Below are positions 17,680 through 42,835 of a DNA stretch of 48,893 nucleotides, in pieces. A model generated the notes under the pieces. The model ran no database searches. It had not been told where the DNA came from and saw nothing but the letters and a program-made list of their open reading frames with translations. This DNA comes from a virus. Lineage: Duplodnaviria; Caudoviricetes. The position numbers and the translations under genes were made by a program. The DNA is taken from the IMG/VR virus record IMGVR_UViG_3300043764_000023, positions 1-48,893 of that record; one strand, 5' to 3'. Position 1 is the stretch's first letter. Every line of letters begins with the position of its first letter.

Positions 17680-18796
17680 CTAGCACAAGTCCCTTCGTTT
17701 TGTCTTCAAATGGAGCTAATAACTGCTCTGCAACACTATCGTCCATAAATGGTATCTGTACCATAAAAGTATCTCCGTCAAGTAATAATCCACGACCTGC
17801 GATTCCTCCAAGTTTCTCAGCTCCTTCACGATCTAAGATAATCTTACTATTTGCAGTATCACCAGTTGTAAACGCTAATCTTGTTAAAATATTTGCTTTC
17901 AGTCTTGGCTTCATGACTGTACTGGCATCAGGTCTTTGACTTGCAAGAATCAAGTGAACATTTACATATCCCGCTGTTTCTGCGATTTCTTCGAGCATTT
18001 TCATCAGTTCTTTGTTTTCAGCAAGCCTTGCGACTTCATCAATACAGACAAAAATCGGAGAAAATTCGTGGTAGTGGTTCAGAGCGTGGTTTTTGACACC
18101 TTTCGCATCTGCGACTTTCCGTAAGTCAGGGTGATGTAATAAGAGTTTCGAGCGACGTTTGTATTCAGCTATCACACTTTCAAGCATTTCCATTGCTTGT
18201 TCTTCGTCCATTGAGAGTGTAACGTTAGGTAAGCGAAAGAACGGGTAAAAATCTTTAATTTTCGCACTAGAGATATGGAGCTTCATACTTCCTTTTGTTT
18301 GAACGTAGAGGGAAGTTAGTGTATAAAGAAGAAACTTCGTTTTCCCCATACGTGTTGCTCCCCCGTTAAGTAGATGACAACTAGCCCCGTCTTCAAAATC
18401 TAAGGTCATTTCCCCGTATGCGGTTGGTAAATAGATTTTAAGCGTTCCATCATGGAGCATATCTTCTTTAAAGATAACGTGCGATAAGTCGTTGATTCCA
18501 AACAAGATCGTCGTCCATCGACCTTTCTTTTCTTCAATTTTAGCATCTAACGCTCCGAGGTCATCAACGAGCTTAGGTAGTATCTTCAGTAAATCATCAT
18601 TTGTTTTCTTCGAGCTAAGACCAATCGTTACAGATAGATATGTCTTAGTTTTTATAATCGTCCCGACCTGACAACCAAAGAACCCTTTTTCCTGAAGCAC
18701 ATTGTAGATAATCTCCGTTTCACCTGATAACTTTGTTTCATCGTGTCGAATCTTTCGGTACAGACCGTAAGCTAAGGCAGCAGCTGTAAGATACAT
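17591..18796 (-). CDS. FtsK/SpoIIIE-family ATPase
   Basis: HLLNGGATRMGKT, VCIDE, LASQRPD, GRGLL; N-terminal anchor. Confidence 0.9.
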   Translation of the reverse strand: MYLTAAALAYGLYRKIRHDETKLSGETEIIYNVLQEKGFFGCQVGTIIKTKTYLSVTIGLSSKKTNDDLLKILPKLVDDLGALDAKIEEKKGRWTTILFGINDLSHVIFKEDMLHDGTLKIYLPTAYGEMTLDFEDGASCHLLNGGATRMGKTKFLLYTLTSLYVQTKGSMKLHISSAKIKDFYPFFRLPNVTLSMDEEQAMEMLESVIAEYKRRSKLLLHHPDLRKVADAKGVKNHALNHYHEFSPIFVCIDEVARLAENKELMKMLEEIAETAGYVNVHLILASQRPDASTVMKPRLKANILTRLAFTTGDTANSKIILDREGAEKLGGIAGRGLLLDGDTFMVQIPFMDDSVAEQLLAPFEDKTKGLVLDDEKGQSDSALSERVQGLLKKSVSLPDLQ

Positions 18797-23533: not shown

Positions 23534-26500
23534 CTAGTTTCCATTTGTTTTTGCTTGAGATAGTGAAACAAAATAGCTCTGTACTGCTTGTCTGATTTTA
23601 TCTAGGGTGCTTGTGTCTTTGTTGCTGTTATTCATAAATGGCTTCGCAAAGCTACCAAATGCTCCGATTTGACCAAGTGCATAAGGAAGTAAATCGTTTC
23701 CTTGTACGGTTTTATTTTTAAAGTCAATCGGATTACCTGTGAAGTAATTATGGTTGCTCGAAAGTTCCAGTGGTGCTTTGATGAATGGCGATGATGACGA
23801 AATTAAACTAGATACAGGACGACCAAGTTGCTCAAGGTCATTGCTTGGGAACGGAATATTCATGTACTGGTTAGTAAATGGAATATGAAGACCGCCCTGT
23901 TTCTGATAGTCAGCTCCGTCCGCATTTTCGTTAAATGCTGATTTTAAACGCTGAGTGTTCTCTATATATTTCGGATTTTCCATCACCATTTTAAGCTGTA
24001 ATGGAATATTTCTTTTCATCCAGTTCCAAAACGGTACAACAGCCCTCATATGACGGTCAGCGTTCGTGTTTTCTGTGTAGTTGAAAAGGTACGTTCTGAC
24101 CTGTTCTGCTGCTTTTTTCACATTACCATTGTTCTTTTCAAGACCGTTTATAAAGTTCGCTAGACGGTAAGGATCGTCAATCCCTTCCCCTTTATGTCTT
24201 GCAAATTTACCAACCTTAGAATCTAGTAACTTACTATTTAGTCCTTCAAGTTTATCAGCGGTTTTATTAAGGATGCTGTTAGGATGCTCGCCAACTTTTG
24301 AAGAAAAGTGTGTCGTGTCAGCCATGTACCCTCCATTAATGACATTATGCTTAAAAGCTGCATCCATAATCATTTGCTCTGAATGGGTGAGTTCTGCTCC
24401 GCTTTTCCACTTTTTCATCAAGCTGAACGCTTTCCCGTAGTCCTTCATCCTTACACCAGCAGCAAAGTTGATCGCTACGTTACCAATGACGTTATTTAGG
24501 TAATGACTTGGCTTAAAGACGGTTACAGATGTACGGAATAAGCTAGTCACACCGTTCATCACACGCATAAAGCTATTCATCCCTTTACCTGTGAATAGTT
24601 CATCGACACGTTTCATCCCGTCAAGTACCTCAGGTTGCATATAGTGCTGACCTTTACCAAGACCTAAGCGGTTCGCTTCTTGTGGTGAGAGTAATTTAAG
24701 TCCGACCGGTACATCTTTTGGATTACTTTTTAGCATACCGAACTTCTTAAATTCACCGTTCATCATTTTCATGCTACGTGAACGAATACTTTCACGAACA
24801 CGCTTCATAATAACCTGTGACGTGTCGAGATTGTACATTTTCCCTAGTTTATCAAGAGCATCTTGAAGGTGTGCTGTTCGATCAGCGGATAATCCATCTG
24901 TTGCAAGTTCTTTATGAATACCATTAATCACATTGTCACGATCTGCAATTGTTTTAAATCCAGTACGCTCTTGATTGAATGCATTTTTAGCACTTTTCCC
25001 AAGTAACGCTGAACTGTCAGGATGGCTAAGTGTTGCCTGAATACTTTTCATTTCCTCATCGCTAAAGTTCTTAACGTGTGGGAAGTAGTTTTGCATGACT
25101 TTGTCAAGAAGACCTGACCCTCTCTCTTCTTTCGACAACTTACTAAATAACCCCTTCATTGCACCTGCATACTGATTAACTTTGTCCATATTTAGACCAT
25201 CAGTTGTGTGACCGTTAGGGGCTTTTCCTTCTAACTTATAGATAGCTGCCATTTCTTCTTCAGGTTTTAACCCCTTTTTCATCGCATCAAGTGAACTAAG
25301 GTCTTTACGATACTTCGCCATTTCGCCAAATGTCTGATTCATCGCATCTGCATGATGGTTAGCCATGCTATTAACAAAGTCATTAGCTGAGCGAAACGTT
25401 CTTGGGTCGAACGGGTTCTTTGTTGCTAGGGCTTTTTCAAGATTTGTTGTTGGCATCTCAAGTGCGTGATACCCGTTACCAATCACTTTATCAATTTCAT
25501 TAGTTTTTCCGATGGTGTTGACACCATCAAAGTTTTTCATAAAGTCAGCTAGGTCGGAAGCGGGTAATGGACGGATAGCATTTTGACCTCTGTTAAATCC
25601 CTGAAGCTGATTGTGAAGATCATCAACCATGCTTCTTGTCATATTAGCTGGATTGTTTACTCCATAACGTTCCGTTAAAATTTTCATTTGGTCAGCAGGA
25701 TCATACACTTTATTCTGCATGAACATCTCAGGAACTACGTGAGAGAAGTCTTGTCCAAGAGTAGCTTCACTTCTGAAAAGTGGATTTTTAGCCCCGTATT
25801 CTCCAGCTTTTAGGAAATTTTGCTTGCCACCAATCATGTTAACAAGGTTATCCCCACTTTTTGTAAATGGTAAGTTAGGTACATGAAGACCCCAGCTGTT
25901 AATATTTGCATTATGAGCTGTGTTGAACGCACTATCAATGGCATCTGCATTTTTAATGTACTTATCATCAATCACTTTCGCAAGGTTCGGGTATTTCGCT
26001 AAGTCTTGTTGACGAACAGTATCAAGTAAGATGTGGGGGTCTTTTACCATATCTTTTGTCACTTGTAGTCCGTTTTTACCTGCAATCTCCGTCATTTTTG
26101 CGATTTTTGACGCTTCTCCTGCTTTACTTGCAGCAGATAATCCGCCTGTTAGGTAAGTAAGCGGGTCAAGAGCAATATCAAGACCAAGACCCCCTAAAGT
26201 CTTGCTCCACTTGTTATTGACACCGACCTCGTCTTTCATAATGTCAGACCCACGTTTCCATCCAGTGTCCATCCCGTTCAGGAAACCGACTCCGGGAATA
26301 TCTCCCCATGTAAACTTACCATCTGTCCAGTCATCCCACTGGTGCTTTGCTCCGTTTGCGATACCTCGTCCGATGGTGGTGATGGGGTTAAAGTCTTGAA
26401 GCACATTCCAAGCACCGTCTAAAGAAGGGTTTTTAAAAAGACTTTTTATATCATCTACACCATGATAAACGTGATCTGTGACCGCTCCGCCAATCTGACC

Positions 26501-26749
26501 AATTGTGCCTGAGAGCATATCCCAAATACTAAACCCACCATCATTCGCTTTTGGAGCTGTCGCATTTGCAATATCTTTTGCAGATAACATACCTGCATTG
26601 TTGACCATTTTACCCGCGGTGTTCCCAACTGAGGTCAACTTAGAACCAAGACTTCCCCCATTAGGGATAACAGGTATCGACGGATTAACCTTTATATTAT
26701 TAATTTGATTAATTAAATTCTGAACATCAGGTGAGATTGTTCCGCTCAT
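23534..26749 (-). CDS. Large internal virion (DNA ejection) protein
   Basis: 1071 aa, last structural gene; LDPLTYL, PFWNWMKRNIP, SPFIKAPLEL patterns of podophage ejection proteins. Confidence 0.65.
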   Translation of the reverse strand: MSGTISPDVQNLINQINNIKVNPSIPVIPNGGSLGSKLTSVGNTAGKMVNNAGMLSAKDIANATAPKANDGGFSIWDMLSGTIGQIGGAVTDHVYHGVDDIKSLFKNPSLDGAWNVLQDFNPITTIGRGIANGAKHQWDDWTDGKFTWGDIPGVGFLNGMDTGWKRGSDIMKDEVGVNNKWSKTLGGLGLDIALDPLTYLTGGLSAASKAGEASKIAKMTEIAGKNGLQVTKDMVKDPHILLDTVRQQDLAKYPNLAKVIDDKYIKNADAIDSAFNTAHNANINSWGLHVPNLPFTKSGDNLVNMIGGKQNFLKAGEYGAKNPLFRSEATLGQDFSHVVPEMFMQNKVYDPADQMKILTERYGVNNPANMTRSMVDDLHNQLQGFNRGQNAIRPLPASDLADFMKNFDGVNTIGKTNEIDKVIGNGYHALEMPTTNLEKALATKNPFDPRTFRSANDFVNSMANHHADAMNQTFGEMAKYRKDLSSLDAMKKGLKPEEEMAAIYKLEGKAPNGHTTDGLNMDKVNQYAGAMKGLFSKLSKEERGSGLLDKVMQNYFPHVKNFSDEEMKSIQATLSHPDSSALLGKSAKNAFNQERTGFKTIADRDNVINGIHKELATDGLSADRTAHLQDALDKLGKMYNLDTSQVIMKRVRESIRSRSMKMMNGEFKKFGMLKSNPKDVPVGLKLLSPQEANRLGLGKGQHYMQPEVLDGMKRVDELFTGKGMNSFMRVMNGVTSLFRTSVTVFKPSHYLNNVIGNVAINFAAGVRMKDYGKAFSLMKKWKSGAELTHSEQMIMDAAFKHNVINGGYMADTTHFSSKVGEHPNSILNKTADKLEGLNSKLLDSKVGKFARHKGEGIDDPYRLANFINGLEKNNGNVKKAAEQVRTYLFNYTENTNADRHMRAVVPFWNWMKRNIPLQLKMVMENPKYIENTQRLKSAFNENADGADYQKQGGLHIPFTNQYMNIPFPSNDLEQLGRPVSSLISSSSPFIKAPLELSSNHNYFTGNPIDFKNKTVQGNDLLPYALGQIGAFGSFAKPFMNNSNKDTSTLDKIRQAVQSYFVSLSQAKTNGN

Positions 26750-26797: not shown

Positions 26798-27187
26798 CTA
26801 ATACCACTTGTGAGCATCCCAGTATTGTAAGGCTTTTTCTACCGAACCATAGCGTGAAACTGCATATTTATACGTTAAAACGATTTGGTCAGCGGGGTTA
26901 TTATAGTTTAAGTTTGGGTACTGCTTCGCATAGTTACGAACTGTACCGTTTAAGAACTGACCATACCCGTGAGCTGTACTCGTTGGGTTTTTTGAGTTCG
27001 GATTAAGTCCGCTTTCACGAGCAATTAGCTCAGTTAAATTTCGTGTTTCATTAGCTGGCACACCTTTATTAATCGCTTGTGACATATGCTGATTAAATGT
27101 TCTCATACTAGACGTATTATTGAACTGAGGTGATTTCCAGTAATTATTGTATGTCCCTGTCCCTCCTCCACTCGTATTTGTCGTTAC
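26798..27187 (-). CDS. SLT-like lytic transglycosylase domain, probably expressed by -1 frameshift from the upstream gene
   Basis: LIARESGLNPNSKNPTSTAHGYGQF, RYGS; no RBS before ATG 27106; frame open back to the slippery site. Confidence 0.75.
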   Translation of the reverse strand, partial: VTTNTSGGGTGTYNNYWKSPQFNNTSSMRTFNQHMSQAINKGVPANETRNLTELIARESGLNPNSKNPTSTAHGYGQFLNGTVRNYAKQYPNLNYNNPADQIVLTYKYAVSRYGSVEKALQYWDAHKWY

Positions 27188-28761
27188 TTTCCCGTCGTTG
27201 CACTATTTAACTTTGCAGAAATTTGAGCTGTTAATTTACTGTACTGAGTCATTAAACTTTTCTTTTGCGAATCTGTAACACCTTTTGCACTAACTTGTTT
27301 CATAATATCGTCACGTTGTTTTGTTAATTCTTTAACTTGACGAGTTACATCGGCATTATTTAAAGAAGCTAGAGTTTTATTAACTGAGTCATCGTATTTA
27401 TTCTGAGCTAGTTTCAATTGACCTGACTTAATATCTAAGTTTTTCGCTGAAATTTCAAGCTGTTTTTGTTTTACAGCAAGATCACCGAGCATTTTTGAAT
27501 AGTTTGTGTTGGCATTTTTCGCACTTGTATTCGCATTTTGCTGTTTAATTGCGTTATTTATCATATCATTTTGCGATTTTTGGTCTAGTTTCAAGTAATC
27601 TAGGGTCTTAATCGGATTCCCTTTTTTATCTGTGACCATTTTACCGTTAGAGTACAAATAGCCAGTTGAAGAAGTTAACTGCTTGTCCCGCTCATCTTGA
27701 ATTTTCATCAGTGATGTATTCGCATTAACCTGAGCAGTTATTTTTGCTGTATCTGCTTTTTGCCCATCAAGTGTGCGTAATGGGTTTCCTTTTGAATCCT
27801 TCATGACCTGACCTGTTTGCGGATCATAAACAAACCCTGTTTGACTTGACATTGCATTTGCATAATCGGAAATTTGTTTTGCTTTTGCTGCATCAATTTG
27901 AGCTTGCTGTGCATCCTGAGCTTGTTTTTGAGCTGCAAACCCACCACTTGCTTTAAAGTCAGACAGTTGTTTTGCTGCCATCGCATCAGGATTCATTTGT
28001 AATAACTGCTGGTTCGCATCGTTAATCATACCCGCATACCTAGACGACATATCTGCCATGTTCTGATTGTACTGGTTCGTAGCATTTGCACTATTTTGGT
28101 TAAACACATTTTGAATATTGTTCTTTTCATTAGCTGCTTGGTCGTATGAGCTTTGCAAGTTACGATTTCCGCTCATCGCAAGTCTATTTCTTGCTTCATC
28201 ACCAATACCACTTGTATTCATTCCCCTGTTTGCGAGTGATTGCTCGTTATTTAAAGCATCTAGGTAATTCTGACCAAGTACGTTATTTAATGTTGTATTT
28301 AAGTTTTTATCAGCTAGGTTCATCGAATCATTTCGCCCACTTGTTAAAGAAGACATGTACTGATTGAACGCATCCTGAGCCTGTTGTTGCTGCTGTTGTT
28401 GCTGGCTTTGTAATCCGCCTATATAATCTTTCATTCCGTTAATCATCGGATCATACTGCTGATGCCACGCATCTTGAAACTGTTTCAGTAAATCTCCATA
28501 TCTTGCGTCTTCCGTCTTATAATCCATCCCGTTCGATACTCCGCTGATAGGAGCTGAGTTTGCTAAATTTCCAAGCGAAGTTCCCTTTAAGACACCTTGA
28601 GCTTGTTTATTTCCACTTAACGCACTAATCGCTGTCTGAACAGGGTTCGTTGGAACAACTGGCTTTGTAACTGTGGGTGTTGTTGGTTTCGGTGCGACTG
28701 GTGCTGGAGATTTTACAATACCTGCCGATGGAGCTGGTACAATTCCGCCTACGATTCCCAT
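27184..28761 (-). CDS. Internal virion/ejection protein (Q/N-rich, coiled coil)
   Basis: LANRGMNTSGI motif, repeated TG(F/Y).Y...D.KGNP..TLD units. Confidence 0.65.
   Translation of the reverse strand: MGIVGGIVPAPSAGIVKSPAPVAPKPTTPTVTKPVVPTNPVQTAISALSGNKQAQGVLKGTSLGNLANSAPISGVSNGMDYKTEDARYGDLLKQFQDAWHQQYDPMINGMKDYIGGLQSQQQQQQQQAQDAFNQYMSSLTSGRNDSMNLADKNLNTTLNNVLGQNYLDALNNEQSLANRGMNTSGIGDEARNRLAMSGNRNLQSSYDQAANEKNNIQNVFNQNSANATNQYNQNMADMSSRYAGMINDANQQLLQMNPDAMAAKQLSDFKASGGFAAQKQAQDAQQAQIDAAKAKQISDYANAMSSQTGFVYDPQTGQVMKDSKGNPLRTLDGQKADTAKITAQVNANTSLMKIQDERDKQLTSSTGYLYSNGKMVTDKKGNPIKTLDYLKLDQKSQNDMINNAIKQQNANTSAKNANTNYSKMLGDLAVKQKQLEISAKNLDIKSGQLKLAQNKYDDSVNKTLASLNNADVTRQVKELTKQRDDIMKQVSAKGVTDSQKKSLMTQYSKLTAQISAKLNSATTGK
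27187..27193 (-). other. Programmed -1 frameshift heptamer G GGA AAG
   Basis: In-frame G-GGA-AAG directly before TAA of the 525-aa gene. Confidence 0.7.
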
Positions 28762-31945: not shown

Positions 31946-34345
31946 TTACTTTGGTTTTCGTAATTTGAAGATATAAGCTACACCTAAGAAATTACAAGGT
32001 AAGTTTTCTTCTTGTACAATTTTAATTTTCGTTCGTCTACATTTACCTGATAGCCTAACCATACTGACGACACTGTCGAGCGTACCAAATGCTGATGTTC
32101 CCATTGTCCACGATCCAAGGACTGTCCCTGAGTCAACATGTACGTTAGGTATTGATGAATTAATCCACTGAACTGATCCGTTTTGGATTTGAATAGCTGT
32201 CGTGTCAGGATTAACCACAATACTACTATCTGCTGACACATAAACTTTTAAGTTTGACGTACTACCTTGCACCTTCATTAAAAGCTGCATTTGTTTTAAG
32301 ACTTTCTTATGGTAGGGCTGACCAAAGTCAAAGTATTTCGTTTCAACAATGAACTTATAGACTTCACCAAGGTCTGTAACAATGCTTAGATTTTTTGGAT
32401 CGAACTGAACAATATCACCAACATCTTTTCGCTGTCCAATTAATAGTCCGTCCCATTCTGTTAACTGGCAAAGTGTCATTTTAGATGACGTATCCCTTGT
32501 CCAAACACCGAGGTCAGTGTAGTATCTAAACCTTACGTTATCCGTCGGATAAATCAGATGGAACTGTTTGTTATAATAAACCCCTACGCAGTCCGTTGAT
32601 TTCGGAACACTATTCCAAATCGCCATATCAACTCGTTTTACGTCCATATGAATCCCGATTGTACGAATAGAGTAAAGGATAAAAATACCCTCTTTTGAAA
32701 CAAAATAGACCCCGTTCGTAACGAGACAAGCCGAATAAGGAGCGATGCACCCAACAGAAGCATTGATGACCATTTTCGTATAATCCTGAGGACTTGACCC
32801 GACAAGCATCTGCGTACTGGTTGGAGTGAAAACAACTAGGTTATTACGGTAGATCACGCAAGCTGTAATCCCTTCTTGACGATTACTCTTAAAGTCAATC
32901 ATGTTATTTGTCGGGAAATATCTCGGATTGTTTAAATGAGAGATATAAAGCTGATTGCTATTAACTGTATCACCGTACATGCAAAGCCTGTCGTTTAGGA
33001 CAAAGATACGATTACACGTTTGAATACCACTTGAACTAAGTGCTGTATTTTGGTCTGTACCGTTTACCGTATATTTTGGATAATTGAATACAACATCTTG
33101 ACCTGTCGTACCTTGCTTACGGACTGAAAAACGGAAACTATAGTCAGTTGCTTCAGTCGGTTTAAAGGTAACTGTTTTTCCTACAGCAGCTAAACTATAA
33201 TCTTGAAGGGTTGTCCAAGCTGAATCAACAACCCGTTTATACTCTGTTTTGTACTCAAGAATATCTGAAGCACCTTTTGTTGTAATCATCGTGAAATTCG
33301 TTGGCTGATTAACAACCCCGTACCGCTTGTCATAGATGATCGTGTCAATGTTAATCGCAATACTGGTACTATCACTCACATAGTTAATTGGGTCGGGGTA
33401 AAGTGCATTATATCCGACATACATCGCATCAAGACCGTTCGGTTTGTATGGTGTGACTGTTTTTGCAGTAGTCCCGTCGTATTCAACAAGTCCTGAGCCT
33501 GTTGCAATGTAAAGCGACGTTTGAAACTGGACTGCTTCAATTCTTCTCGTAGTTTGAAAGTTTGCGAGATTTGTAATAGGAAGTTGAATCCCGTTTTTAT
33601 ATAAAGCCCCGTTAACAGCGGTAATTTCTTCATAGTTTATTGACTGGAACGGTGTAAAAGGTGTTGCGACTGCTCCAACTTCTAACTGAACGTTTGAAAC
33701 GGTAATAGGTAATCCGTTTGCTGAAGTAGTGTCACGCTGTACTTCAATTTTAAAATCAGTTAAATCAGATGCAAGTGTGGTACTTTGGATTAGATTTGAA
33801 CTCCCGCTACTTGCAGGGTAGCTAAGGATAACCGACCAATTTGTATTTGAAACGGTCTTAACAAATACTTGAATCACTCCGTCATTCTGAGATTTCATGT
33901 ACGTCCCAAATTCTAATGTGACCTGATTCCCTTTTAGTCTTGGGATAAGGGTTGAATCCATCGTATAAAGTAAATTGACACCTGTCGAATACGACGAGCT
34001 AAAGGTAATGCTTGCATCTGTTTTAGCTGAAGCTACTGCCCCGTTTTGGAGTGACCAAGAACTATCTGTGAATGGTTTGATAAAGTTCTTTGTTGTCGTT
34101 GGGTTCGCTAAATAATAACGGAAATACCCTTGACCTACACCCGAAACAGGCGGAACGAGTCTTGAAGTCATACCTAAGCGACGAGTGACATTTCCTCTTG
34201 CATCTAGGTCAGCATTCTCAAGAAAAACTAACTCATGATCTTGTAAGTTATCATTTGTTGTAACGGTATTTAACCCGCCTGAGAAATTTTTAAATAACTC
34301 AAGTTTCTTCTCACTTGGATTAGTTAAGTACCCTTGTCTTACCAT
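31946..34345 (-). CDS. Tail nozzle (tubular protein B / P22 gp10-like)
   Basis: NFSGGLNT, ENAD..ARG..RR.G, VGCIAPYS, ETKYFDFG; start revised to 34345. Confidence 0.7.
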   Translation of the reverse strand: MVRQGYLTNPSEKKLELFKNFSGGLNTVTTNDNLQDHELVFLENADLDARGNVTRRLGMTSRLVPPVSGVGQGYFRYYLANPTTTKNFIKPFTDSSWSLQNGAVASAKTDASITFSSSYSTGVNLLYTMDSTLIPRLKGNQVTLEFGTYMKSQNDGVIQVFVKTVSNTNWSVILSYPASSGSSNLIQSTTLASDLTDFKIEVQRDTTSANGLPITVSNVQLEVGAVATPFTPFQSINYEEITAVNGALYKNGIQLPITNLANFQTTRRIEAVQFQTSLYIATGSGLVEYDGTTAKTVTPYKPNGLDAMYVGYNALYPDPINYVSDSTSIAINIDTIIYDKRYGVVNQPTNFTMITTKGASDILEYKTEYKRVVDSAWTTLQDYSLAAVGKTVTFKPTEATDYSFRFSVRKQGTTGQDVVFNYPKYTVNGTDQNTALSSSGIQTCNRIFVLNDRLCMYGDTVNSNQLYISHLNNPRYFPTNNMIDFKSNRQEGITACVIYRNNLVVFTPTSTQMLVGSSPQDYTKMVINASVGCIAPYSACLVTNGVYFVSKEGIFILYSIRTIGIHMDVKRVDMAIWNSVPKSTDCVGVYYNKQFHLIYPTDNVRFRYYTDLGVWTRDTSSKMTLCQLTEWDGLLIGQRKDVGDIVQFDPKNLSIVTDLGEVYKFIVETKYFDFGQPYHKKVLKQMQLLMKVQGSTSNLKVYVSADSSIVVNPDTTAIQIQNGSVQWINSSIPNVHVDSGTVLGSWTMGTSAFGTLDSVVSMVRLSGKCRRTKIKIVQEENLPCNFLGVAYIFKLRKPK

Positions 34346-34347
34346 GC

Positions 34348-34941
34348 TTACCAACCTCCCCATGTTCTAGGCGGAATGTTATATGGCTCTGCTTCTTCCC
34401 ATGTACAGCTAACCTGATCCCCAAGCATTGTTGGAACGGATAATTTAACCGTATTCCCATCTAATCTGTAATCAACCGAACGCTTTTGAGGTGTCCCGTT
34501 TAGATAAACCTGAAGATAGTTAAGGTGCGGGAAAAAGTTTGGCTTTGTAATTTGAAAATCTGTCTGATTTGCGATCGCTATAAACTGCTGTGCAAATGGG
34601 TTATCTTGATAGATTGTTGGTACTTGAATGTAAACCGTCGCTTCACTTAATCTGTGTTCAAATAAATTATCAATGTACTGAGCTTCATTCATTGCTTCAT
34701 CTGACTCTCTGTATCTTGCACACGCATAAATCACAAGTAGTTCATGGTAACGATTATCGAAAACTGGCTCAGTTAAAGCACTTTGAGTCCCGTCGGGATT
34801 TAAAAACTTAGGGAAAACTGCTCCAGCACGTAAGCCGATTCTGTTCTGAGCTTCGTCCATCCACCCTAAAATCAAAATCCCCTCTAATGCTGGCTCTTGT
34901 AAGCGGTCTTGCACCGCTTTAATTAGTGCTTGTACTTGCAT
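34348..34941 (-). CDS. Head-tail adaptor (tubular protein A-like)
   Basis: WMDEAQ..., P.FD.RYHELLV.YA; located between capsid and nozzle genes. Confidence 0.65.
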   Translation of the reverse strand: MQVQALIKAVQDRLQEPALEGILILGWMDEAQNRIGLRAGAVFPKFLNPDGTQSALTEPVFDNRYHELLVIYACARYRESDEAMNEAQYIDNLFEHRLSEATVYIQVPTIYQDNPFAQQFIAIANQTDFQITKPNFFPHLNYLQVYLNGTPQKRSVDYRLDGNTVKLSVPTMLGDQVSCTWEEAEPYNIPPRTWGGW

Positions 34942-34960
34942 AAGACCACTCCTTTCCTAA

Positions 34961-35326
34961 CTAGCAACCAATGCCTTGTAAGTATCCAGTTAATCCGCCT
35001 GTCGTCGGAGCTACTGCTGCTGTTGCAACGAATCTCATTGAACCAATGAAGATTTTAATACCCGTTAATGTACTGTCAAACTGGTTCGCAACAACTGAAC
35101 CACCAGCTACGACTGATACTGTATTTCCGATTGTTGCCCAAGTCACTCCGCCATCAAACGATGCTTGAGTGCTGATTGTGATTGCTTGGTCAGTTGTGTT
35201 GATTAAAACAATCGCCGTATCCTCAAGTTGATCCATTAAAACAGGTACACTTGTCTGCGGTGTTGTCGTTCTGATTGCTAAGTTGTTAAATATCTGTGCA
35301 TTTGAAAGAATTGTATTAAAACTCAT
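34961..35326 (-). CDS. Small beta-rich virion protein
   Basis: 121 aa, ASFDGGVTWATIG. Confidence 0.55.
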   Translation of the reverse strand: MSFNTILSNAQIFNNLAIRTTTPQTSVPVLMDQLEDTAIVLINTTDQAITISTQASFDGGVTWATIGNTVSVVAGGSVVANQFDSTLTGIKIFIGSMRFVATAAVAPTTGGLTGYLQGIGC

Positions 35327-35481
35327 TCTGAAACCTCCTTTTTCTTCCTAGAAACTGGTTTTGGTGCATTTAATTGCACTCTTAAAACATGAACTTCACT
35401 TTTAAGCTCTTTTACTTCCGTAATTAGCTCATTAAATAGTCTTTCAAGTAAAAAATCTGAGTTTGTTAGTGGATTTGACAT
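35323..35481 (-). CDS. Small coiled-coil protein (52 aa)
   Basis: AGGAGG RBS; MSNPLTNSDFLLERLF... Confidence 0.6.
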   Translation of the reverse strand: MSNPLTNSDFLLERLFNELITEVKELKSEVHVLRVQLNAPKPVSRKKKEVSE

Positions 35482-35495
35482 GACTTCCTCCTAAT

Positions 35496-35528
35496 AAAAA
35501 GAGGTAGAGGTAAAAACCTCCACCCCTT
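35496..35528 (-). terminator. Terminator after the major capsid gene
   Basis: GGGGTGGAGGT-tttt-ACCTCTACCTC followed by T5 on the - strand. Confidence 0.75.
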
Positions 35529-35541
35529 GAGTGTGTTTTAA

Positions 35542-36507
35542 TTAAGCGTTACCTGTTCCGTTAGAACCGAATATGCCCCTATAATCGCTATAACCTACTG
35601 AGAACCTGCAATATCCGATGTATTTTTGTTGCATTGTTTCGAATGATTTTTCGTTAGAGAACTCTAAACGTTTTCTCCAAAAGAAGTTAAGTTGTGCCAC
35701 AACTGGATCAATTAAGAACCAAGCTGTATTTGATGTTAAGTAATCAAGAACAACAACTTGTAAGCTGTTTTGAATAACGTTTTTCTCAGTGTTAGAAGCT
35801 ACTAACGCAGTAGAGCCTGTTTGCTGAGAAGTGAATAATCCGTTACCGTTTGGAGATAATCCAGCAGATTGTAAGATTGTTTTTGCTGCGTACTCAAGTG
35901 ATGGCGGTACAACTAAGATTTTAGGTTGTACTTGGATTAAAATACCACGATCATCCACTTGGCGACGAGTTTGAATTAATGCTGCTTTTAAGTTACGGTC
36001 AGATAAAGCACCATCTGCTTGTCCCGCACCATCAGTGTTTGCTAAACGGTTAGACATTGCTCCCCCGTCTAAACGTTTGTGTGTAGATGAGATTAATGTA
36101 TTACCGTCGAAACCGTTAACTGTGAACGCATTATTGAACACTTCAGCCGCTTTAGTTTCGATTGTTGCACGAGCTGAACGAGCTAAAGCAGCAGACATTT
36201 TGTTGATTTGTCCGTATTGCTCGTCGTCCACTAACTTACGTTCAAGTGTGAAACCTGAAGCAAATTCTTCGTGAATGTATTGTAAAGCTGCTGTATCTGT
36301 TGGGTCTTGGAACTGTACAGAACCAGCAGAATCTTTTTTATCCCAAAGACCAAAACCGCCCATACGTAAATCGGTTTCGATGGCTTTGTTCGATTGTTGT
36401 ACGTTGAAAACCTGTGAATACTGCTCAGGAATTTCTTTGTATGTTTCCATGAAAATTTTGCGTAATCCCGGTTCTAGTAATCTACCGTAGTTTGCTGATG
36501 ATAACAT
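35542..36507 (-). CDS. Major capsid protein (Mu gpT-like HK97 fold)
   Basis: LLEPGLRKIF, LVDD.QYG, PKILVVPPSLE, LTSNTAWFL, RFSVGYSDYRG. Confidence 0.88.
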   Translation of the reverse strand: MLSSANYGRLLEPGLRKIFMETYKEIPEQYSQVFNVQQSNKAIETDLRMGGFGLWDKKDSAGSVQFQDPTDTAALQYIHEEFASGFTLERKLVDDEQYGQINKMSAALARSARATIETKAAEVFNNAFTVNGFDGNTLISSTHKRLDGGAMSNRLANTDGAGQADGALSDRNLKAALIQTRRQVDDRGILIQVQPKILVVPPSLEYAAKTILQSAGLSPNGNGLFTSQQTGSTALVASNTEKNVIQNSLQVVVLDYLTSNTAWFLIDPVVAQLNFFWRKRLEFSNEKSFETMQQKYIGYCRFSVGYSDYRGIFGSNGTGNA

Positions 36508-36533
36508 TTGTATTCCCTCCCTTATTCCTTAAA

Positions 36534-37061
36534 TTAGAATGTATTATTCGTTGCCATGATAACAAATACTTTTGTACCGTCTTTTGAAATATCTACTACT
36601 TTAACAACTGGGTTTGCTACGTTTGTAATATCAACCGTTTGATCTCCTGTTGCATCTTGTGAAATACCGTAAGCTACACCTACGTTAGCGTTTGTTGCTA
36701 TCTTACCTGCTGCAACTGGTACTCGGTATACTGAGTCCGTTTCAACACGAATTTTCCCGATACCATTAGGATTACGAGTCATATCTGTTGATGAGCTAGT
36801 GAAAGATGAATTTACTGCTGCATAAGGTTGTCCTTGTGCAACTAAACCAGTAAATGCGATCCCTTCTAGTACTCCTACAGCTTTAGGTGTTGCTTGGTTT
36901 TTTGTACGAGTAACTAATCCACCATTTAGGTAAACTAAATCCCCTTTTTTGTAACCGTTCGTACCAACACCATTTTGGTAGTTCGTAACTGTGTCTAGCG
37001 GAAAGTCTTTAATAGATGATACCGCCATACCATCTAATGAATAAGCGTATTCAAATGCCAT
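36534..37061 (-). CDS. Capsid decoration/cement protein
   Basis: Between scaffold and capsid; KGDLVYL..G, AVGVL. Confidence 0.65.
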   Translation of the reverse strand: MAFEYAYSLDGMAVSSIKDFPLDTVTNYQNGVGTNGYKKGDLVYLNGGLVTRTKNQATPKAVGVLEGIAFTGLVAQGQPYAAVNSSFTSSSTDMTRNPNGIGKIRVETDSVYRVPVAAGKIATNANVGVAYGISQDATGDQTVDITNVANPVVKVVDISKDGTKVFVIMATNNTF

Positions 37062-37080
37062 GTTGTTTCCCTCCTAAAGA

Positions 37081-37983
37081 TTATTTGTATTTGAGATAAT
37101 CTTCTTCGGTCATACCTAACTGTTTGGCAACATATCGTTCCTCATCTGTTAAGCTCTCAACCTTAGAAGGCTTACCGCTTTGGATACTGCGTGAACGTTT
37201 CGAACGTCCGCTTTCTTTGGCTAAGATTTCTTGCTCCGTTTGCTGCTTTAGTCCGTTGATAATTTTTTCCCCATGAACAGCGTATACAGCTTGTTTAAGA
37301 GGTAAGTCAACGTTTCGAGCAACGTTTAATATATAATCAACCGCTGAGTCCATATCTTCTGATGATAACATTGGAAATTCACTTGCAAGACGGTCTTTTT
37401 CTAAACCAATGTTGTTATTCCAAAGCTGGAAACGGACTTGATTCAGTTCCTTTTCAAGTTTAGTTGCCCTCTCATCTGATTCCTGTTGACGTTTTAACAC
37501 CTCAACTGGAACGTTCTGAGCTTTTGCTTGATCCTGAAGTTGCTGCTCTTTAATCTGAGCCATGATTACGTCAGGTGTCGTTCCGTATAATTCACTAAGC
37601 TGTTTCGCAAGTTGAAACTCAGGAGATTCACTTCGAACCTTCTCAATTTCAGCATCAATTCGAGCCTGTGTTTCACGTTCACGACGTTCACGAGCAAAAC
37701 GAGCATTTTCTTCTTTCGACTGAACTTTTTTCGCTGGTTCAGTATCTTCAGTAGAAGGTTCTTCGTCCTCATCAACATCTAGGTCATCGTCTGATGGTTC
37801 GTCGTCTTCAGGTTCTTCGTCTGATTCTTCAGGCTCTTTGTCCTCGTCTTCAGGCACTTCGTCCTCATCGTCGAATTCATCGAATTCACCTGCGTTGATT
37901 TTACGAATAGCTTCCATAATGTCTTCCTGACCAGTTGTTTCCGTAGCTTGTCCATCTTGATTTAGAGTAGTATTGTCTTCCAT
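37081..37983 (-). CDS. Capsid scaffolding protein
   Basis: Acidic N-terminus, ENARFARERRE, C-terminal LTDEER..AKQLGMTEEDYLKYK; start revised to 37983. Confidence 0.8.
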   Translation of the reverse strand: MEDNTTLNQDGQATETTGQEDIMEAIRKINAGEFDEFDDEDEVPEDEDKEPEESDEEPEDDEPSDDDLDVDEDEEPSTEDTEPAKKVQSKEENARFARERRERETQARIDAEIEKVRSESPEFQLAKQLSELYGTTPDVIMAQIKEQQLQDQAKAQNVPVEVLKRQQESDERATKLEKELNQVRFQLWNNNIGLEKDRLASEFPMLSSEDMDSAVDYILNVARNVDLPLKQAVYAVHGEKIINGLKQQTEQEILAKESGRSKRSRSIQSGKPSKVESLTDEERYVAKQLGMTEEDYLKYK

Positions 37984-38072
37984 GTGTATTCTCCTTCCCA
38001 TGTTTACGCTTGGGTAGCGAAATTGTATTCTAATTTCGTACTTACGCTTACGAATAGCGATTATATAGTCAT

Positions 38073-38101
38073 ATCATAACGAATTTTCAATATTTTGTAA
38101 A
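38073..38101 (-). promoter_or_regulatory. Sigma-A-like promoter for the scaffold-capsid operon
   Basis: TTTACA-17-TATGAT on the - strand. Confidence 0.55.
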
Positions 38102-38133
38102 CAATTTTTTACCAATTTTGTAATTATTTTTCA

Positions 38134-38163
38134 GTATAAAGTGTATTTTAGGTGGTGATACTA
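38134..38163 (+). promoter_or_regulatory. Sigma-F/sigma-G (forespore) type promoter
   Basis: GTATA-15-GGTGATACTA matches GYWTA-15-GGNRANANTW. Confidence 0.65.
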
Positions 38164-38180
38164 CAAACTAAGGTGTATTT

Positions 38181-38552
38181 ATGGGGGTGATTGTCTTCTC
38201 AGGAGCTATACATTGGAGGATGTGTTTACTTCTATGGATATTGTGGTATTTTCAGACAGGTGTATGGGTTAATCCTGTTATTGCCCTATTTGCAACGTTA
38301 CTTCCTGACGCAGATCATCCAAAAGCACCGATGGGTAGGTTTATTCCGCTTCATTTATTTTGTAAGCATAGAGGATTTACTCACTCATTTGAAGGAATGT
38401 TTTTGTTCTCCTTACCGTGCTTATTCATATCTGTGAACTTTTGGATTTCGTTTCTATTTGGGTACCTAGTGCATCTATGGATGGATGCTATGACCTATAC
38501 GTCTGTCAAGTGGTTTTATTTCTACAAACGAAAAAAGAGCCTACCGTTTTAA
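38181..38552 (+). CDS. YdjM-like membrane metal-dependent hydrolase
   Basis: SGAIH, LLPDADHP, HRGFTHS, GYLVHLWMD. Confidence 0.85.
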   Translation: MGVIVFSGAIHWRMCLLLWILWYFQTGVWVNPVIALFATLLPDADHPKAPMGRFIPLHLFCKHRGFTHSFEGMFLFSLPCLFISVNFWISFLFGYLVHLWMDAMTYTSVKWFYFYKRKKSLPF

Positions 38553-38566
38553 GGTAAGCTCTTTTT
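38531..38566. terminator. Bidirectional terminator
   Basis: A6-GAGCCTACC-loop-GGTAAGCTC-T5. Confidence 0.8.
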
Positions 38567-38750
38567 AGGCTTTCTGAGTTTAACGTCTTTAAAGCAGCTC
38601 GGACGGGACTTATGGTTAAAGGTCATACATTGTATGACTAATTAAGGTAAAGATAAACCACGATTAGTTTATCGCCTTGCGTGGGTCGGGCAACTTGGTA
38701 ACAGTAACTTGCAGGAAACTGTTGATTCATTGATACAAAAACTTAGATTT
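38531..38750 (-). ncRNA. Putative ~220-nt structured sRNA
   Basis: Own promoter (TTGACA-17-TAGTAT at 38785-38757), terminator, several hairpins, no RBS-led ORF. Confidence 0.55.
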
Positions 38751-38787
38751 GTTCTTATACTAAACTAAGTTGTCTGAATTGTCAAGC

Positions 38788-39018
38788 CTATGCTTCGACT
38801 GGAATATCACAGTTTTCATTCGTTGCGATTTCCCAGTCATCTTGAAGGATGCCAGCAAGTGTGAATAGAATATCTGCTGTGTCTTTTAAGAAGATAACTG
38901 ATCCGTCTTTTGAATGAATTTCGAGTTGACCGTATTTATAAACCCAGTACCCTCTCCATACTTTACGTTTAATTGGTGTACCTGCTACTAAATTTGCAAA
39001 TAATTCTTTGAATGTCAT
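38788..39018 (-). CDS. DUF2829/Tad2-like small protein
   Basis: MTF.E....L..G..IKR..W.GYW...IL.DDWEI. Confidence 0.6.
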   Translation of the reverse strand: MTFKELFANLVAGTPIKRKVWRGYWVYKYGQLEIHSKDGSVIFLKDTADILFTLAGILQDDWEIATNENCDIPVEA

Positions 39019-39051
39019 TTCACGTTCCCCATTTCATTTATATTGTAGTGC

Positions 39052-41004
39052 TTAACTACCTTGAGTCATATTTGCTCCTGCGGTTTCGTTCATTACTCCT
39101 TGTCTTTGCCCTTGAGGACTTGCAGGAGTTCCCATTCCTCCGCCTATATCTAAGACCTGACTCACTCCTGTTGAGTTCGTTGTCTGAACTAACTGGTTAA
39201 TCATCGGCTGAATTTGCTGCGTGATTTGGTCGTCTGTCATACCTTTTCCTTTTAGCATTTTGGCTTGCTGAACAATACCCATAATGTTTTGGCTCATTGT
39301 TTGTGATTCTTGCGACTGCATCTTAACTCTGTCTTGCTGCATACGGGCTAGAACGTCCTCTTTATTATCAAAGTCCTGAAGGACAATCCATTCTTCAGGT
39401 GTAATGATCGGAGGATTGAACTGGAACTGACCCTGCATCTGCATTAATTTGTCTGCTTGCTGACGTTTTGCAGCCTGAGTCATCGGAGCTTTAGCGTATA
39501 CGTTTGAACGTAATCGCCACTCTAAATTATCAACGACCATATCAGGTAGCGGAGTCCATGTATCATACTGAGCTTGTCCGTTTAACTGACGAGTCATGAT
39601 TGGTCTTGGCTCTTTCCAGTAACAAATGATGAATTTAATGATTAGCATAGATAAATCTTCAACAAAGTCATCAATCTGCACTGATTTATCCTTATCACGC
39701 ACTGTCGCACGTTCGATTAAGCTATCAACACCTGTTGATGTTGTAAGTGACCCGACCGATTGACCCATATAGGCTTCAGATAGCCCTGCCATATCCTTAA
39801 TATCGGCTTTCATGCGATCTTCAATCTCAAATAGACCCTTTGGAATATCAGGCGGTTCAATCTTTTCAACCGCATTTGGTACGTTTGAAGTCCAAACTTT
39901 ACCCGGAAGTGTACCCGTTCTACTCATCTCAGATGCATTAATCCCTGAGTCCCGAAGGACTACTTTTTGAGGATTTTGGTGTAATGTACCGATGATTGAA
40001 GCTGTCTGTGCTGTTTTGTTGATAATCTTTTGGTTTTCAAGCATATCCATAGCAGTTGACGTACCCCAAAAGTCCATATCTTCTTCCTCATCGTATAGAA
40101 TTGCGAATGGGTACTCATTTACTGGTATGTCCTCCTCTTTGTATAGTAAAAAGTCAGTATTCCATAAGTAATAGCTTACGTCTACTTGCCACTTACCTTC
40201 ACTATTTTTAAATCGTTCAAAGTGATGGTGAACTGTGCACATATCATCACCTGTGTCACGCTGATTTCCGTTCGAGGTCATGTTGTTATCACGAATGTAA
40301 ATGTCACCTGTTGCATCACTTTCTCTTTGTAAGTCCGAAAATTTCAAATTCTCAAGTCGTTTTCCTGCGTACTGTTTATACGTTGGGTCATTTTTAACAC
40401 TTGAAAAAGCGATGTTTTCTGTCACTTCGATAAATTTACACTGATTTTTTGAATAAGCATCAGGATCAGGAAAGAAATTTGCATTGTTAATCCGTTTCAT
40501 CTTGACATTGTACTTATACAGCATGTTACCTGAGTGGTTTTCCCCGTAATATTTTCCTTTCACTTCTTCATCAACATACACATAAGCAATGCTTGTCCCA
40601 TGAAGTAAGGCACGATCTACACATCTGCGAACTAAAAGCGTTGCCTTTTCCTCATCCCACACATGCTCGTAAGCCTTTTGAAGATGCTCAACAAGTGGTG
40701 CATCAAGGGGTGTCATCGGTGTTAACTCCGCTCTAGGGACGTTTAGGGCTAAATTGGCTCTTTTTGTCGTGCGAATCATTCGAATGAGGTTGGTTACGGG
40801 CTTAGGAAGCCAAACTGGTAAGCTAACAGTCTCCCATTGTTTCCCTCTGTCGAACAAGTCAAGCATCTTCCACTGTTGGTGCATTGTACCAACTGCTGAC
40901 TCCGCTTTCCTGAAACGACGGATCATCTTTTGAACTAACTTCTTTTGGTCTTCGTCTGTTAGCTGTGAAACTGCGACCTGTGTTGTTTGGTCAATTTGTG
41001 TCAT
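39052..41004 (-). CDS. Portal protein
   Basis: G.QW, PVTNLI, FFPDPDA, YPF...FWG.S, QKIINK, TSTGV; Q-rich tail; start revised to 41004. Confidence 0.85.
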   Translation of the reverse strand: MTQIDQTTQVAVSQLTDEDQKKLVQKMIRRFRKAESAVGTMHQQWKMLDLFDRGKQWETVSLPVWLPKPVTNLIRMIRTTKRANLALNVPRAELTPMTPLDAPLVEHLQKAYEHVWDEEKATLLVRRCVDRALLHGTSIAYVYVDEEVKGKYYGENHSGNMLYKYNVKMKRINNANFFPDPDAYSKNQCKFIEVTENIAFSSVKNDPTYKQYAGKRLENLKFSDLQRESDATGDIYIRDNNMTSNGNQRDTGDDMCTVHHHFERFKNSEGKWQVDVSYYLWNTDFLLYKEEDIPVNEYPFAILYDEEEDMDFWGTSTAMDMLENQKIINKTAQTASIIGTLHQNPQKVVLRDSGINASEMSRTGTLPGKVWTSNVPNAVEKIEPPDIPKGLFEIEDRMKADIKDMAGLSEAYMGQSVGSLTTSTGVDSLIERATVRDKDKSVQIDDFVEDLSMLIIKFIICYWKEPRPIMTRQLNGQAQYDTWTPLPDMVVDNLEWRLRSNVYAKAPMTQAAKRQQADKLMQMQGQFQFNPPIITPEEWIVLQDFDNKEDVLARMQQDRVKMQSQESQTMSQNIMGIVQQAKMLKGKGMTDDQITQQIQPMINQLVQTTNSTGVSQVLDIGGGMGTPASPQGQRQGVMNETAGANMTQGS

Positions 41005-41315
41005 TCTTCCATCCCTCCGTTCACAATATCGACTCCATGATCTGCAAGCCACTGTCTAGTTGCGAAATCAGTAAAACCATACTCATCCGCATACTTTTCA
41101 GGTTCTTTTTCAGGCTGATATGGCTGTATCGGTTTTAGTTTGACAACTGCTTTCACATCATTCAGTAAAAATACACCTTCAGCTAGTGCAACTGCATGCT
41201 CCTCATCAACAACCGCTTTACTTACCTTATCAAATTCAGATTTTGTCCATTCGATTACACGAAATGTTTCGTTCATGTAGTGTATTTGGTACTCATACTT
41301 ATTTGGCTTTGTCAT
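41001..41315 (-). CDS. Hypothetical protein
   Basis: 104 aa, AAGGAG RBS. Confidence 0.7.
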   Translation of the reverse strand: MTKPNKYEYQIHYMNETFRVIEWTKSEFDKVSKAVVDEEHAVALAEGVFLLNDVKAVVKLKPIQPYQPEKEPEKYADEYGFTDFATRQWLADHGVDIVNGGMEE

Positions 41316-41332
41316 GTATTCGCTCCTTTCTA

Positions 41333-42835
41333 TTAATAGTATGCAAGATAATCCAACTCTTTTTCGTTATCATCGTCGTATTCGATTGTATCATATATTT
41401 TGTACTCACTGTAGTGTTTAGGTGGCTCATACGCTTCATTTTCGAGCATTGACGGGTCATCAGGCAACCTGGCTATAAGGTATCTAGTTGCATCTAAAAT
41501 ATGATCGTTTGCCTTGATTGGTCTTTCGTCTTGGTTCTCGTTTTCGTTATCCATATCTAGCTCAGGATAAACATATCCAAGAGCTTCTTTAACAAAGTTA
41601 ATACACGTTTTATAGACTTTCAATTTCTTCTGTTCGATGTATGCGTTCACTTTCGCAAGACCGTATTCCATACTATTGTTACCTAGCTGGAAGTAAAGTC
41701 CGTATTCTTGGAAATGTGACTGTACGGATTTCCCTTCGATTGGGTTTGTCCTTGCTTTTGTAGCTGGGTCGATGACCATAAATCGTATTTTACCGATTGG
41801 AATTTCCTCAAGTAGTGCCTTGATTGCTTTTGCGTGTTCAGGAAGTGTCTTTTCAGGTACATAGTATTCGTTATAGATAACTACCTCACCCGATTTCGGA
41901 TTAATCGCCCCAAAAGCGACCGCTGTTGGGTTACGAATACCCCAGTCTGCTCCAATTACCCGTTCCCAGTCCTTAGGTATACCGAAACGATCTGTGTCCT
42001 TTGTTACTTCATATGGGTCAATGAATGTTTCAGCAATAGTCGGGTAGACCATACCACTATTATATTCGAAACTACCCATGAAGAACTTCTGCACGTACCA
42101 GTCTGCTTTACCTTTTGTATTCATCTCAATGAAATTAGGTGGTAAAAACGTATTTAAAGCGGTTTTCCATACAAAAGTACGAATAAACTGATTGTAACGG
42201 TCATGTTGTGGGTGATTTGGGTCTTTACGGGCTTCATTATCTACGAACTCGTCCTTAATCCATGTGTTTGCAGGGTTAGAGCAAACGATAATTGCTTTAT
42301 TTTTAACGAAAACGTCCCTCATACGGGATTGGAGCTGTGTATAAATACTCTTTTTGATCCCTGAAACCTCTTCAAGGTGAACCAAGCCAATCGTCATCGA
42401 ACGAATACGCTGCTCGTCCTCAGTCGGAACGCAGTAAATTGTAAACCCGTTGACGAGCCTAATCTCTCCATCACTCTTATTATAGTATTCTATTAAAGGA
42501 GGTGGGCATATCTCATCAAACCACAGTTTTAGAGTTGTTTTCTTTAATTGTCCCATTGTCTGAGCTGCGAAAATACCTGATCCCCTGTCGTTTTCAAGTG
42601 CCCTCATTAGGAACTCTTGGAGGGTTGCCCTCGATTTTCCACTTCCGTAACCCCCAAAACAAGCTATGATGTCAATTCCGCCCCCAGTCGATACCTGATG
42701 CATCTCTTCTTGATAAGGCATAGGAATATACGTTAACTGCATCGCATTACACTTATTACAAACTTTGTAGCTAGGATGGTTATCAGGTGGCTCGACCATG
42801 TGTCCTACATGGCAATTTGAACAGTGATGGCTCAT
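41333..42835 (-). CDS. terL: Terminase large subunit
   Basis: GGYGSGKS, HLEE, CSNP, GADWG..NPT, NDHILDATRY; N-terminal CxxC/CxxC. Confidence 0.92.
   Translation of the reverse strand: MSHHCSNCHVGHMVEPPDNHPSYKVCNKCNAMQLTYIPMPYQEEMHQVSTGGGIDIIACFGGYGSGKSRATLQEFLMRALENDRGSGIFAAQTMGQLKKTTLKLWFDEICPPPLIEYYNKSDGEIRLVNGFTIYCVPTEDEQRIRSMTIGLVHLEEVSGIKKSIYTQLQSRMRDVFVKNKAIIVCSNPANTWIKDEFVDNEARKDPNHPQHDRYNQFIRTFVWKTALNTFLPPNFIEMNTKGKADWYVQKFFMGSFEYNSGMVYPTIAETFIDPYEVTKDTDRFGIPKDWERVIGADWGIRNPTAVAFGAINPKSGEVVIYNEYYVPEKTLPEHAKAIKALLEEIPIGKIRFMVIDPATKARTNPIEGKSVQSHFQEYGLYFQLGNNSMEYGLAKVNAYIEQKKLKVYKTCINFVKEALGYVYPELDMDNENENQDERPIKANDHILDATRYLIARLPDDPSMLENEAYEPPKHYSEYKIYDTIEYDDDNEKELDYLAYY

Follow-up and report, generated by a model that had tools for sequence, protein, structure and literature searches.

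The 48.9-kb window analysed here (48,893 nucleotides) is the whole of the virus record IMGVR_UViG_3300043764_000023, a short-tailed phage from soil metagenome runs. A 525-aa gene on its minus strand (27184..28761), referred to below as the carrier, encodes a virion protein of long helices that is probably an ejection (internal virion) protein, as indicated by its open reading frame (ORF), its homologues, and an AlphaFold (AF2) model; all window features given below lie on the same strand. The carrier ends Gly-Lys-stop, and its 3′ end reads ACG GGA AAG TAA, with the slippery heptamer G GGA AAG (27187..27193) immediately 5′ of the 0-frame stop codon TAA (27184..27186). The −1 frame is shut upstream by a TAG (27203..27205) and is open from 27202 to a stop at 26798. 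The heptamer has the X XXY YYZ form, is in register, and lies where the gene overlaps this open frame. Because of the upstream TAG, a productive shift is confined to the last codons of the carrier, where slippage would add 129 codons (26798..27187) and yield a 654-aa fusion. Among the four window ORFs of at least 100 aa with a heptamer in their last 10 positions, only the carrier has a long −1 continuation (129 aa vs 3, 6, and 21). A preliminary description of this DNA, made from the sequence alone, had reported this gene end, the closure of the −1 frame, and a product of ~654 aa, and the coordinates agree with it exactly.

The extension comprises a Gly/Thr/Ser linker, a conserved YxNYxK motif (YNNYWK, 27134..27151), and a domain that, judged by translation and profiles, is likely an SLT-type lytic transglycosylase; the peptide VTTNTSGGGTGTYNNYWK is encoded in this frame. 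The domain contains RESG with the presumed catalytic Glu (27019-27008) and GYGQF (26968-26954). RES and GYGQF were invariant in all three aligned sequences, and both the catalytic Glu and the GxxQ motif of PF01464 were found. The Pfam match was marginal (PF01464, E 1.9e-4, 21.4 bits vs a cut-off of 21.3); matches to transglycosylase and tape-measure families in PHROGs were stronger (E down to 1.9e-13), and the SLT domains of relatives gave profile E-values as low as 2e-9. The YxNYxK-type motif occurs in 37 of 42 loci with a −1 overlap and in four of five in-frame fusions, where it is certainly in frame.

A gene caller sees the same region as a 102-aa ORF (26798..27106), which holds the SLT core and begins at ATG 27106. 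As claimed earlier, this ATG has no ribosome-binding site: its duplex with the anti-Shine-Dalgarno sequence was +1.2 kcal/mol, vs −6.2 to −12.5 kcal/mol at 12 of 14 other gene starts (the remaining two of these mechanically called starts also had no Shine-Dalgarno (SD) sequence). We regard it as quite improbable that the SLT domain is a separate small protein made from ATG 27106, by leaderless initiation or re-initiation, with the heptamer being incidental or a relic. Such a protein would suit the position of the ATG, 30 codons ahead of the catalytic Glu, as well as the truly split gene of one relative and the bare site of the window (both described below). However, the conserved YNNYWK lies upstream of ATG 27106, and the Met is unconserved in the nearest relatives (L007 and L119; L numbers denote loci). 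Moreover, among the 43 related −1 junctions defined below, 25 have no ATG before the catalytic Glu and five have no ATG, GTG, or TTG there, and the heptamer is constrained at the codon level.

Three protein homologues of the carrier (39-59% identity) all end Gly-Lys. The DNA was read for one of them, L005 (59% identical), which ends ACG GGA AAG TAG; the −1 frame there specifies another kind of lytic transglycosylase, with the catalytic motif ahead of any ATG, GTG, or TTG. A search with the SLT alignment returned 63 loci (45 viral and 18 genome loci), which, after removal of 14 duplicates and addition of the window and L005, gave 51 distinct junctions: 44 −1 overlaps, five in-frame fusions, and two junctions in the +1 relation, namely an overlap in L067 and a separate gene in L017. 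L050 was excluded for its unrelated upstream protein, leaving 43 −1 junctions (that of the window and those of 42 related loci); the remaining 50 upstream proteins grouped in one single-linkage cluster at E<1e-5. In the SLT tree, which is short (100 columns) and partly unresolved, 35 of 49 rows fell in one Paenibacillaceae clade, and fused forms occurred in both main clades. A search with the carrier family, less biased towards SLT, gave 10 loci, of which one was new and complete (L119); it has the same heptamer, a −1 frame that opens exactly at the heptamer, and an SLT extension.

We scored the strict heptamer in the codon register of the upstream gene and took 281 other ORF ends as the background. 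The heptamer abutted the stop codon in 32 of the 43 junctions (22 GGGAAAC, nine GGGAAAG, and one AAATTTT) vs 1/281 background ends, and lay within the last four positions in 36/43 vs 4/281. For the two other registers, the counts were 0 and 1 of 43. All 31 genes ending in Gly-Lys or Gly-Asn use G GGA AA(G/C), preceded by nine different NNG codons; internal Gly-Lys and Gly-Asn pairs form G GGA AAN in 3 of 143 cases. The heptamer is thus conserved at the nucleotide level beyond the needs of the protein. Conservation of the heptamer, the missing starts, and the SLT match give strong comparative support to the frameshift that the preliminary description had proposed to append a lytic transglycosylase, and the heptamer proved to be conserved in related phages, a check that it had suggested. 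Programmed −1 ribosomal frameshifting is, on these sequence grounds, very probable.

The same two products would also result if a base were added in the mRNA by transcriptional slippage, and four loci (L028, L030, L042, and L068) do have longer runs of G or T. We nevertheless find this mechanism highly improbable, given that the heptamers keep to the codon register of the upstream gene, that the runs are just three bases long in most loci, that the hairpin described below holds a 6-nt spacer from the heptamer, and that L067 has a CCC-stop in a +1 relation. The chance that a single fused gene was broken by a sequencing error or recent mutation is smaller still. Five of the 51 junctions are indeed in-frame fusions, but 42 other loci, L119, and six cultured phages are all broken in the same way at a site of this kind; one of these phages, Page, was assembled at 327-fold coverage (PMC3990757). 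As for the reads of the window itself, run X1 (depth 54.7) crosses the junction without a gap or difference. However, X1 may itself be the run from which this DNA was derived, and no other run crosses the junction, since X2 misses it. For the suggested indel check, the reads thus give no independent confirmation.

A stimulator, either a 3′ structure or a 5′ SD, is common in −1 frameshifting but is not required. Of the 43 loci, 26 carry a GCCCC...GGGGC hairpin that begins 6 nt past the heptamer position; L034, with its stop one codon later, is among them. The next pair in these 26 loci was A-U in 11, G-C in 10, U-A in two, G-U in two, and a mismatch in one, and the pair after that was C-G in 13, G-C in 10, and a mismatch in three; the inner pairs are compensatory. 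The hairpins were weaker 3′ of GGGAAAG (n=10) than of GGGAAAC (n=23; p=0.005, for loci that are not independent), which fits the high propensity of G_GGA_AAG to shift in E. coli (PMC5009743). We also considered a pseudoknot as the stimulator, but the best second stem averaged 4.65 pairs in the 26 hairpin loci vs 4.61 in shuffled sequences, which leaves it unsupported.

While the slip site stays, the appended module changes among loci: SLT, NlpC/P60+SLT, M23 with a lytic transglycosylase (L016, L019, and L067), or a second type of lytic transglycosylase. The Metabacillus prophage L067 (L067:4419-4500) belongs to the same carrier family but reaches its M23 module through a +1 relation, with a CCC TAA end and a strong hairpin; this +1 signal is of the Listeria PSA type. 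In L090 (L090:2227-4707), a VgrG3-like muramidase is fused in frame at the same position, and in L085 the fused domain is the L005-type lytic transglycosylase. By eye, a similar-looking domain stands at the start of the record of phage PK1 (L072:1-588), with the upstream junction outside the fetched regions.

The large gene downstream of the Paenibacillus-type loci led us to the cultured B. megaterium pageviruses. All six that we compared (Page, Pascal, Pony, Pookie, Palmer, and Pavlov; poppyseed was left out) have the −1 overlap, an in-register G GGT TTT two codons before the stop, hairpins downstream, and NlpC/P60+SLT in the −1 frame. They share with the window the gene order, the −1 overlap, and the in-register heptamer, and differ from it in the identity and placement of the heptamer, in the hairpins, and in the NlpC/P60+SLT module; their carrier resembles those of the L015/L016/L056 type. 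In all six, the two frames are annotated as independent genes (gp18/gp19 in Page, Pony, Pookie, Palmer, and Pavlov, and gp17/gp18 in Pascal). For Page and Pony, annotators placed the start of the hydrolase gene beyond the cysteine motif of NlpC/P60 (FDCS). Near-identical pagevirus genomes carry differing annotations of this start (L070:10444-10627, L129-L132). Frameshifting is absent from the announcements of Page (PMC3990757) and Pavlov (PMC4559737), and neither "frameshift" nor "slip" occurs in the available text of those of Pascal, Palmer, Pookie, and Pony (PMC4319499, PMC4424291, PMC4319501, PMC3853050).

Upstream of the carrier, the window contains a podovirus-type morphogenesis block (31946..42835), which by family and profile matches encodes an 805-aa nozzle-like protein, an SU10-type adaptor, a major capsid protein, a P22-like portal, and a terminase. 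The closest cultured homologues of the 805-aa protein are in the Paenibacillus podophages API480 and SV21. An FtsK/SpoIIIE-like gene, followed by a 185-aa ORF (17122-18796), resembles that of the pageviruses; the layout matches the one annotated in pageviruses as FtsK and plasmid replication-relaxation protein. Since its relatives are these Paenibacillus podophages (nozzle-like gene) and the pageviruses (FtsK/SpoIIIE gene), the host is probably a member of the Bacillales (Bacillus-like). The two gene ends inspected in API480, with SV21 the nearest cultured kin by nozzle, showed neither a slip site nor a −1 overlap. For the 805-aa ORF (34363) and a 306-aa ORF (38001), the first ATG is not preceded by an SD, and the true starts are probably downstream. 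No tail tube or tape-measure gene was matched among the late genes scanned (Pfam and PHROGs), in contrast to the placement of lambda G/GT.

The carrier stands between the tail genes and a gene of more than 1000 aa, and before the lysis genes. The order in the window is tail genes, the 525-aa gene, the SLT frame, the 1071-aa gene (23534..26749), and lysis genes, and it is the same in most relatives. A medium gene is thus followed by a larger one (525 then 1071 aa), as in clusters of ejection genes, and the two fit the size and order pattern of gp15 then gp16 described in PMC8954989, which also states that ejection proteins are usually assigned from size and synteny. In API480, proteins at the same positions were detected by mass spectrometry, according to the available text in unpurified particles (PMC6937236).

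The 1071-aa protein is likely a large ejection protein and a distant relative of LPD38-bearing proteins, as judged from profile and language-model similarity. Its language-model features scored 0.97 to a cluster of large polyvalent proteins and 0.94 to an LPD38 cluster, and a pairwise hhalign comparison gave Prob 75 and E 2.5e-5. It had no match in Pfam, including PF18857, and an LPD38-type profile hidden Markov model did not match the window group (hmmsearch). LPD38 was found in six of 10 large downstream proteins scanned and in none of the four nearest to the window. In some loci this large gene looks split (L002:6318-10408, with 257 + 1093 aa; first ORFs of 216 aa in L026 and 157 aa in L067, downstream of the SLT), which could reflect a further recoding site, prophage decay, or faulty assembly.

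The AF2 model of the carrier, built from seven sequences, is all-helical with long helices and no beta tail folds, at low confidence (predicted template modelling score, pTM, 0.36). In a wide structural search, residues 110-237 of the carrier model matched two T7 chains, ranked third and fifth: 7ey7_A with Z 10.3 and a root-mean-square deviation (rmsd) of 1.6 over 102 aligned residues (range 38-139), and 8e4g_a with Z 9.9 and rmsd 2.0 over 127 aligned residues. We take these chains to be gp14 in its ejected form, on the grounds that residues 37-139 are given for that structure in PMC8954989. The matched hairpin contains the most conserved motif of the carrier family (residues 174-191). We treat this model-based match as a lead only. 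The carrier also has two short repeats (TG.vY...KGNP..TLD; residues ~308-331 and 367-388, window 27592-27849), modelled as small beta elements between helices and present in homologues. Searches for a name were negative: tblastn of the carrier against annotated phages and a single-sequence viral scan gave no match, PDB sequence searches with the carrier, the large protein, the nozzle, and the extension gave nothing significant, and the ESM Atlas returned only unnamed clusters for the carrier. The term "ejection protein" used in the preliminary description thus follows from position, helical fold, and a weak structural match, and the carrier is not identified by sequence in any family or PDB search. 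Taking synteny, the fold, and the resemblance to T7 gp14 together, we consider it likely that the carrier is an ejection protein.

The frameshift could also be real while the carrier is an external part of the tail, such as a tip, needle, or lysin arm, that is not ejected. The gene does come after the tail-fibre genes, and in pagevirus annotations the ORF of the hydrolase goes by the name of tail lysin or lytic tail protein; the carrier also has no sequence match to a known ejection protein and no membrane segment. An all-helical model without beta tail folds argues against such a part, as do the gp15-then-gp16 order, the weak match to the ejected helical hairpins of T7, and gp28 of the cyanopodophage A4, a helical ejection protein with a C-terminal lytic transglycosylase and M23 domain (PMC12002296). 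We consider an external location unlikely, although the most credible of the alternatives weighed here.

We thus favour, as the probable explanation, a frameshift at G GGA AAG that gives a major 525-aa form and a minor 654-aa form with a predicted lytic transglycosylase, both likely packaged ejection proteins. This explanation rests on sequence and models, and several points speak against it. At the junction, the window has no downstream stimulator hairpin (z 0.5 at 55 nt; −0.6 to 0.0 over 40-150 nt) and no upstream SD, and initiation at ATG 27106 would still leave the SLT core intact. Seven of the 43 junctions (L019, L028, L030, L042, L048, L056, and L068) have no strict site in the last four positions, but relaxed or more distant sites instead. 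L007 has a purine-rich ATG shortly after the stop, and in L017 a gene of its own, 176 aa long and provided with SD and ATG, encodes the SLT (L017:4720-5300), a split state of the same module. In three pageviruses (Pookie, Palmer, and Pavlov), the GTG annotated as the hydrolase start follows an SD of moderate strength (−6.2), and separate initiation may occur there. Because the loci are related, their counts do not represent independent events, and most loci were chosen by SLT similarity; the window carrier is joined to the Paenibacillus-type carriers by single linkage, with a weak profile comparison (Prob 33). A search with the 1071-aa family gave 45 loci, including six new ones with a related carrier, of which four (L084, L086, L087, and L088) have no detectable hydrolase and two (L085 and L090) are the in-frame fusions noted above. 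Two products are therefore not a family-wide need, and relatives with 100% in-frame fusion or with no hydrolase also weigh on the idea of stoichiometry control. Regarding the ejected nature of the carrier, no Pfam, PHROG, or PDB sequence match gives its identity, and Foldseek with its model found nothing at E<=0.001. The T7 matches were tied with chemoreceptors and other coiled coils, below the Z of ~13 needed for helical models. There are two candidate internal genes, not three, and a simple scan found no hydrophobic membrane segment in the carrier or the 1071-aa protein (KD19 maximum 1.0 and 0.9, respectively). Membrane helices are predicted for gp14-like and gp16-like members but are not expected in a gp15-like one.

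In the mechanism that we propose, peptidyl-tRNA Gly and tRNA Lys would re-pair from GGA AAG to GGG AAA by tandem slippage. Most ribosomes would terminate at the TAA, while a few percent would slip and continue through the Gly/Thr linker to translate the enzyme; a low rate is likely, since the window has neither a downstream hairpin nor an upstream SD. Both the short and long forms would be packaged. Upon adsorption, the helical protein would be expelled via the short tail and oligomerise as a conduit across the thick wall, where the minority of long subunits would cleave the local peptidoglycan before the 1071-aa protein and the DNA follow. It is plausible, as the preliminary description had it, that recoding sets the enzyme stoichiometry. 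The 43 −1 overlaps vs five fused junctions, though one base change would fuse the genes, suggest that the two-product state is maintained by selection. As to its origin, an out-of-frame module simply rescued by frameshifting would be a fair reading, and Ig-like extensions have been viewed in this way (PMC5009743).

Frameshift-extended virion proteins are well known: gp10A/10B of T7 and T3, the major head protein fused to an Ig-like domain in SU10 and phiEco32, and capsid or tail proteins of Lactobacillus A2 and Listeria PSA, A118, and A500 (PMC5009743, PMC4281155). As proposed for our loci, some subunits gain a C-terminal module through a shift close to where a virion gene ends, the SU10 extension uses the same GGGAAAG (PMC4281155), and −1, +1 (CCC-stop), and in-frame versions exist, as among the carrier relatives. 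However, most of those extensions are Ig-like or not enzymatic, and they are borne by capsid or tail-tube proteins, whereas here a predicted hydrolase, of several interchangeable types, is placed on a likely internal protein. The P22-like portal and SU10-type adaptor uphold the assignment to a podovirus in the preliminary description, but its contrast with tail chaperones was too narrow, since podovirus capsid proteins, as in SU10, already use such an extension. The slippery heptamer of lambda G-T is GGGAAAG. The lambda gpG/gpGT pair also relies on a low-level −1 shift at a heptamer of the G GGA AAG type, close to where the first ORF ends, and gives two products, in lambda at a set ratio (30:1, i.e., a shift of ~1 in 30; PMC5009743). 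Unlike the carrier, gpG and gpGT are non-virion chaperones of long-tailed phages, encoded between the major tail and tape-measure genes, while the window has podovirus-type portal and adaptor genes and its extension would be an enzyme.

Hydrolase-bearing ejection proteins are known as well, including gp16 of T7 and gp35 of K1E and K1-5 (PMC8954989). Gp28 of A4 is encoded beside a very large ejection protein and was modelled with its hydrolase domains in half of ten copies (PMC12002296); these domains resemble the M23 and lytic transglycosylase modules of L016, L019, and L067. In all of these proteins, as proposed here, a muralytic domain is carried on an ejected protein, but it is in frame on every subunit, the hosts are Gram-negative, and we detected no sequence homology to the carrier. 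The available texts of PMC8954989 and PMC12002296 contain no occurrence of the word frameshift. Each of the two phenomena is thus known. We found no paper on their combination in open-access PMC and bioRxiv full text; subscription papers and supplementary tables, which could list pagevirus sites, were outside this scope.

More tentatively, it is possible, if less than probable, that recoding acts as an evolvable dial of the number of wall cutters in the ejectosome of Gram-positive podophages, with a swappable cassette. The settings of this dial would be none, few (bare GGGAAAG), more (hairpin-stimulated), and all (in-frame fusion), and the cassettes would be two types of lytic transglycosylase, NlpC/P60, M23, and the VgrG3-like muramidase. 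The short form would be needed since the capsid core or the channel could not hold an enzyme on each subunit, and the arrangement would represent a genetically encoded version of the gp28A/gp28B alternation of A4.

How short-tailed phages cross the thick wall of Gram-positive bacteria is poorly understood, and the review of ejection proteins, in its available text, lists no such proteins for Gram-positive hosts (PMC8954989). The locus described here offers a candidate ejection module in podophages of Bacillus and Paenibacillus, in which recoding would equip some copies of a virion protein with an enzyme rather than a decoration. It also corrects the annotation: "lysins" cloned from Page- or Pony-type annotations would be truncated, because the annotated start lies past the NlpC/P60 cysteine motif. 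The cultured B. megaterium phages make the system testable.

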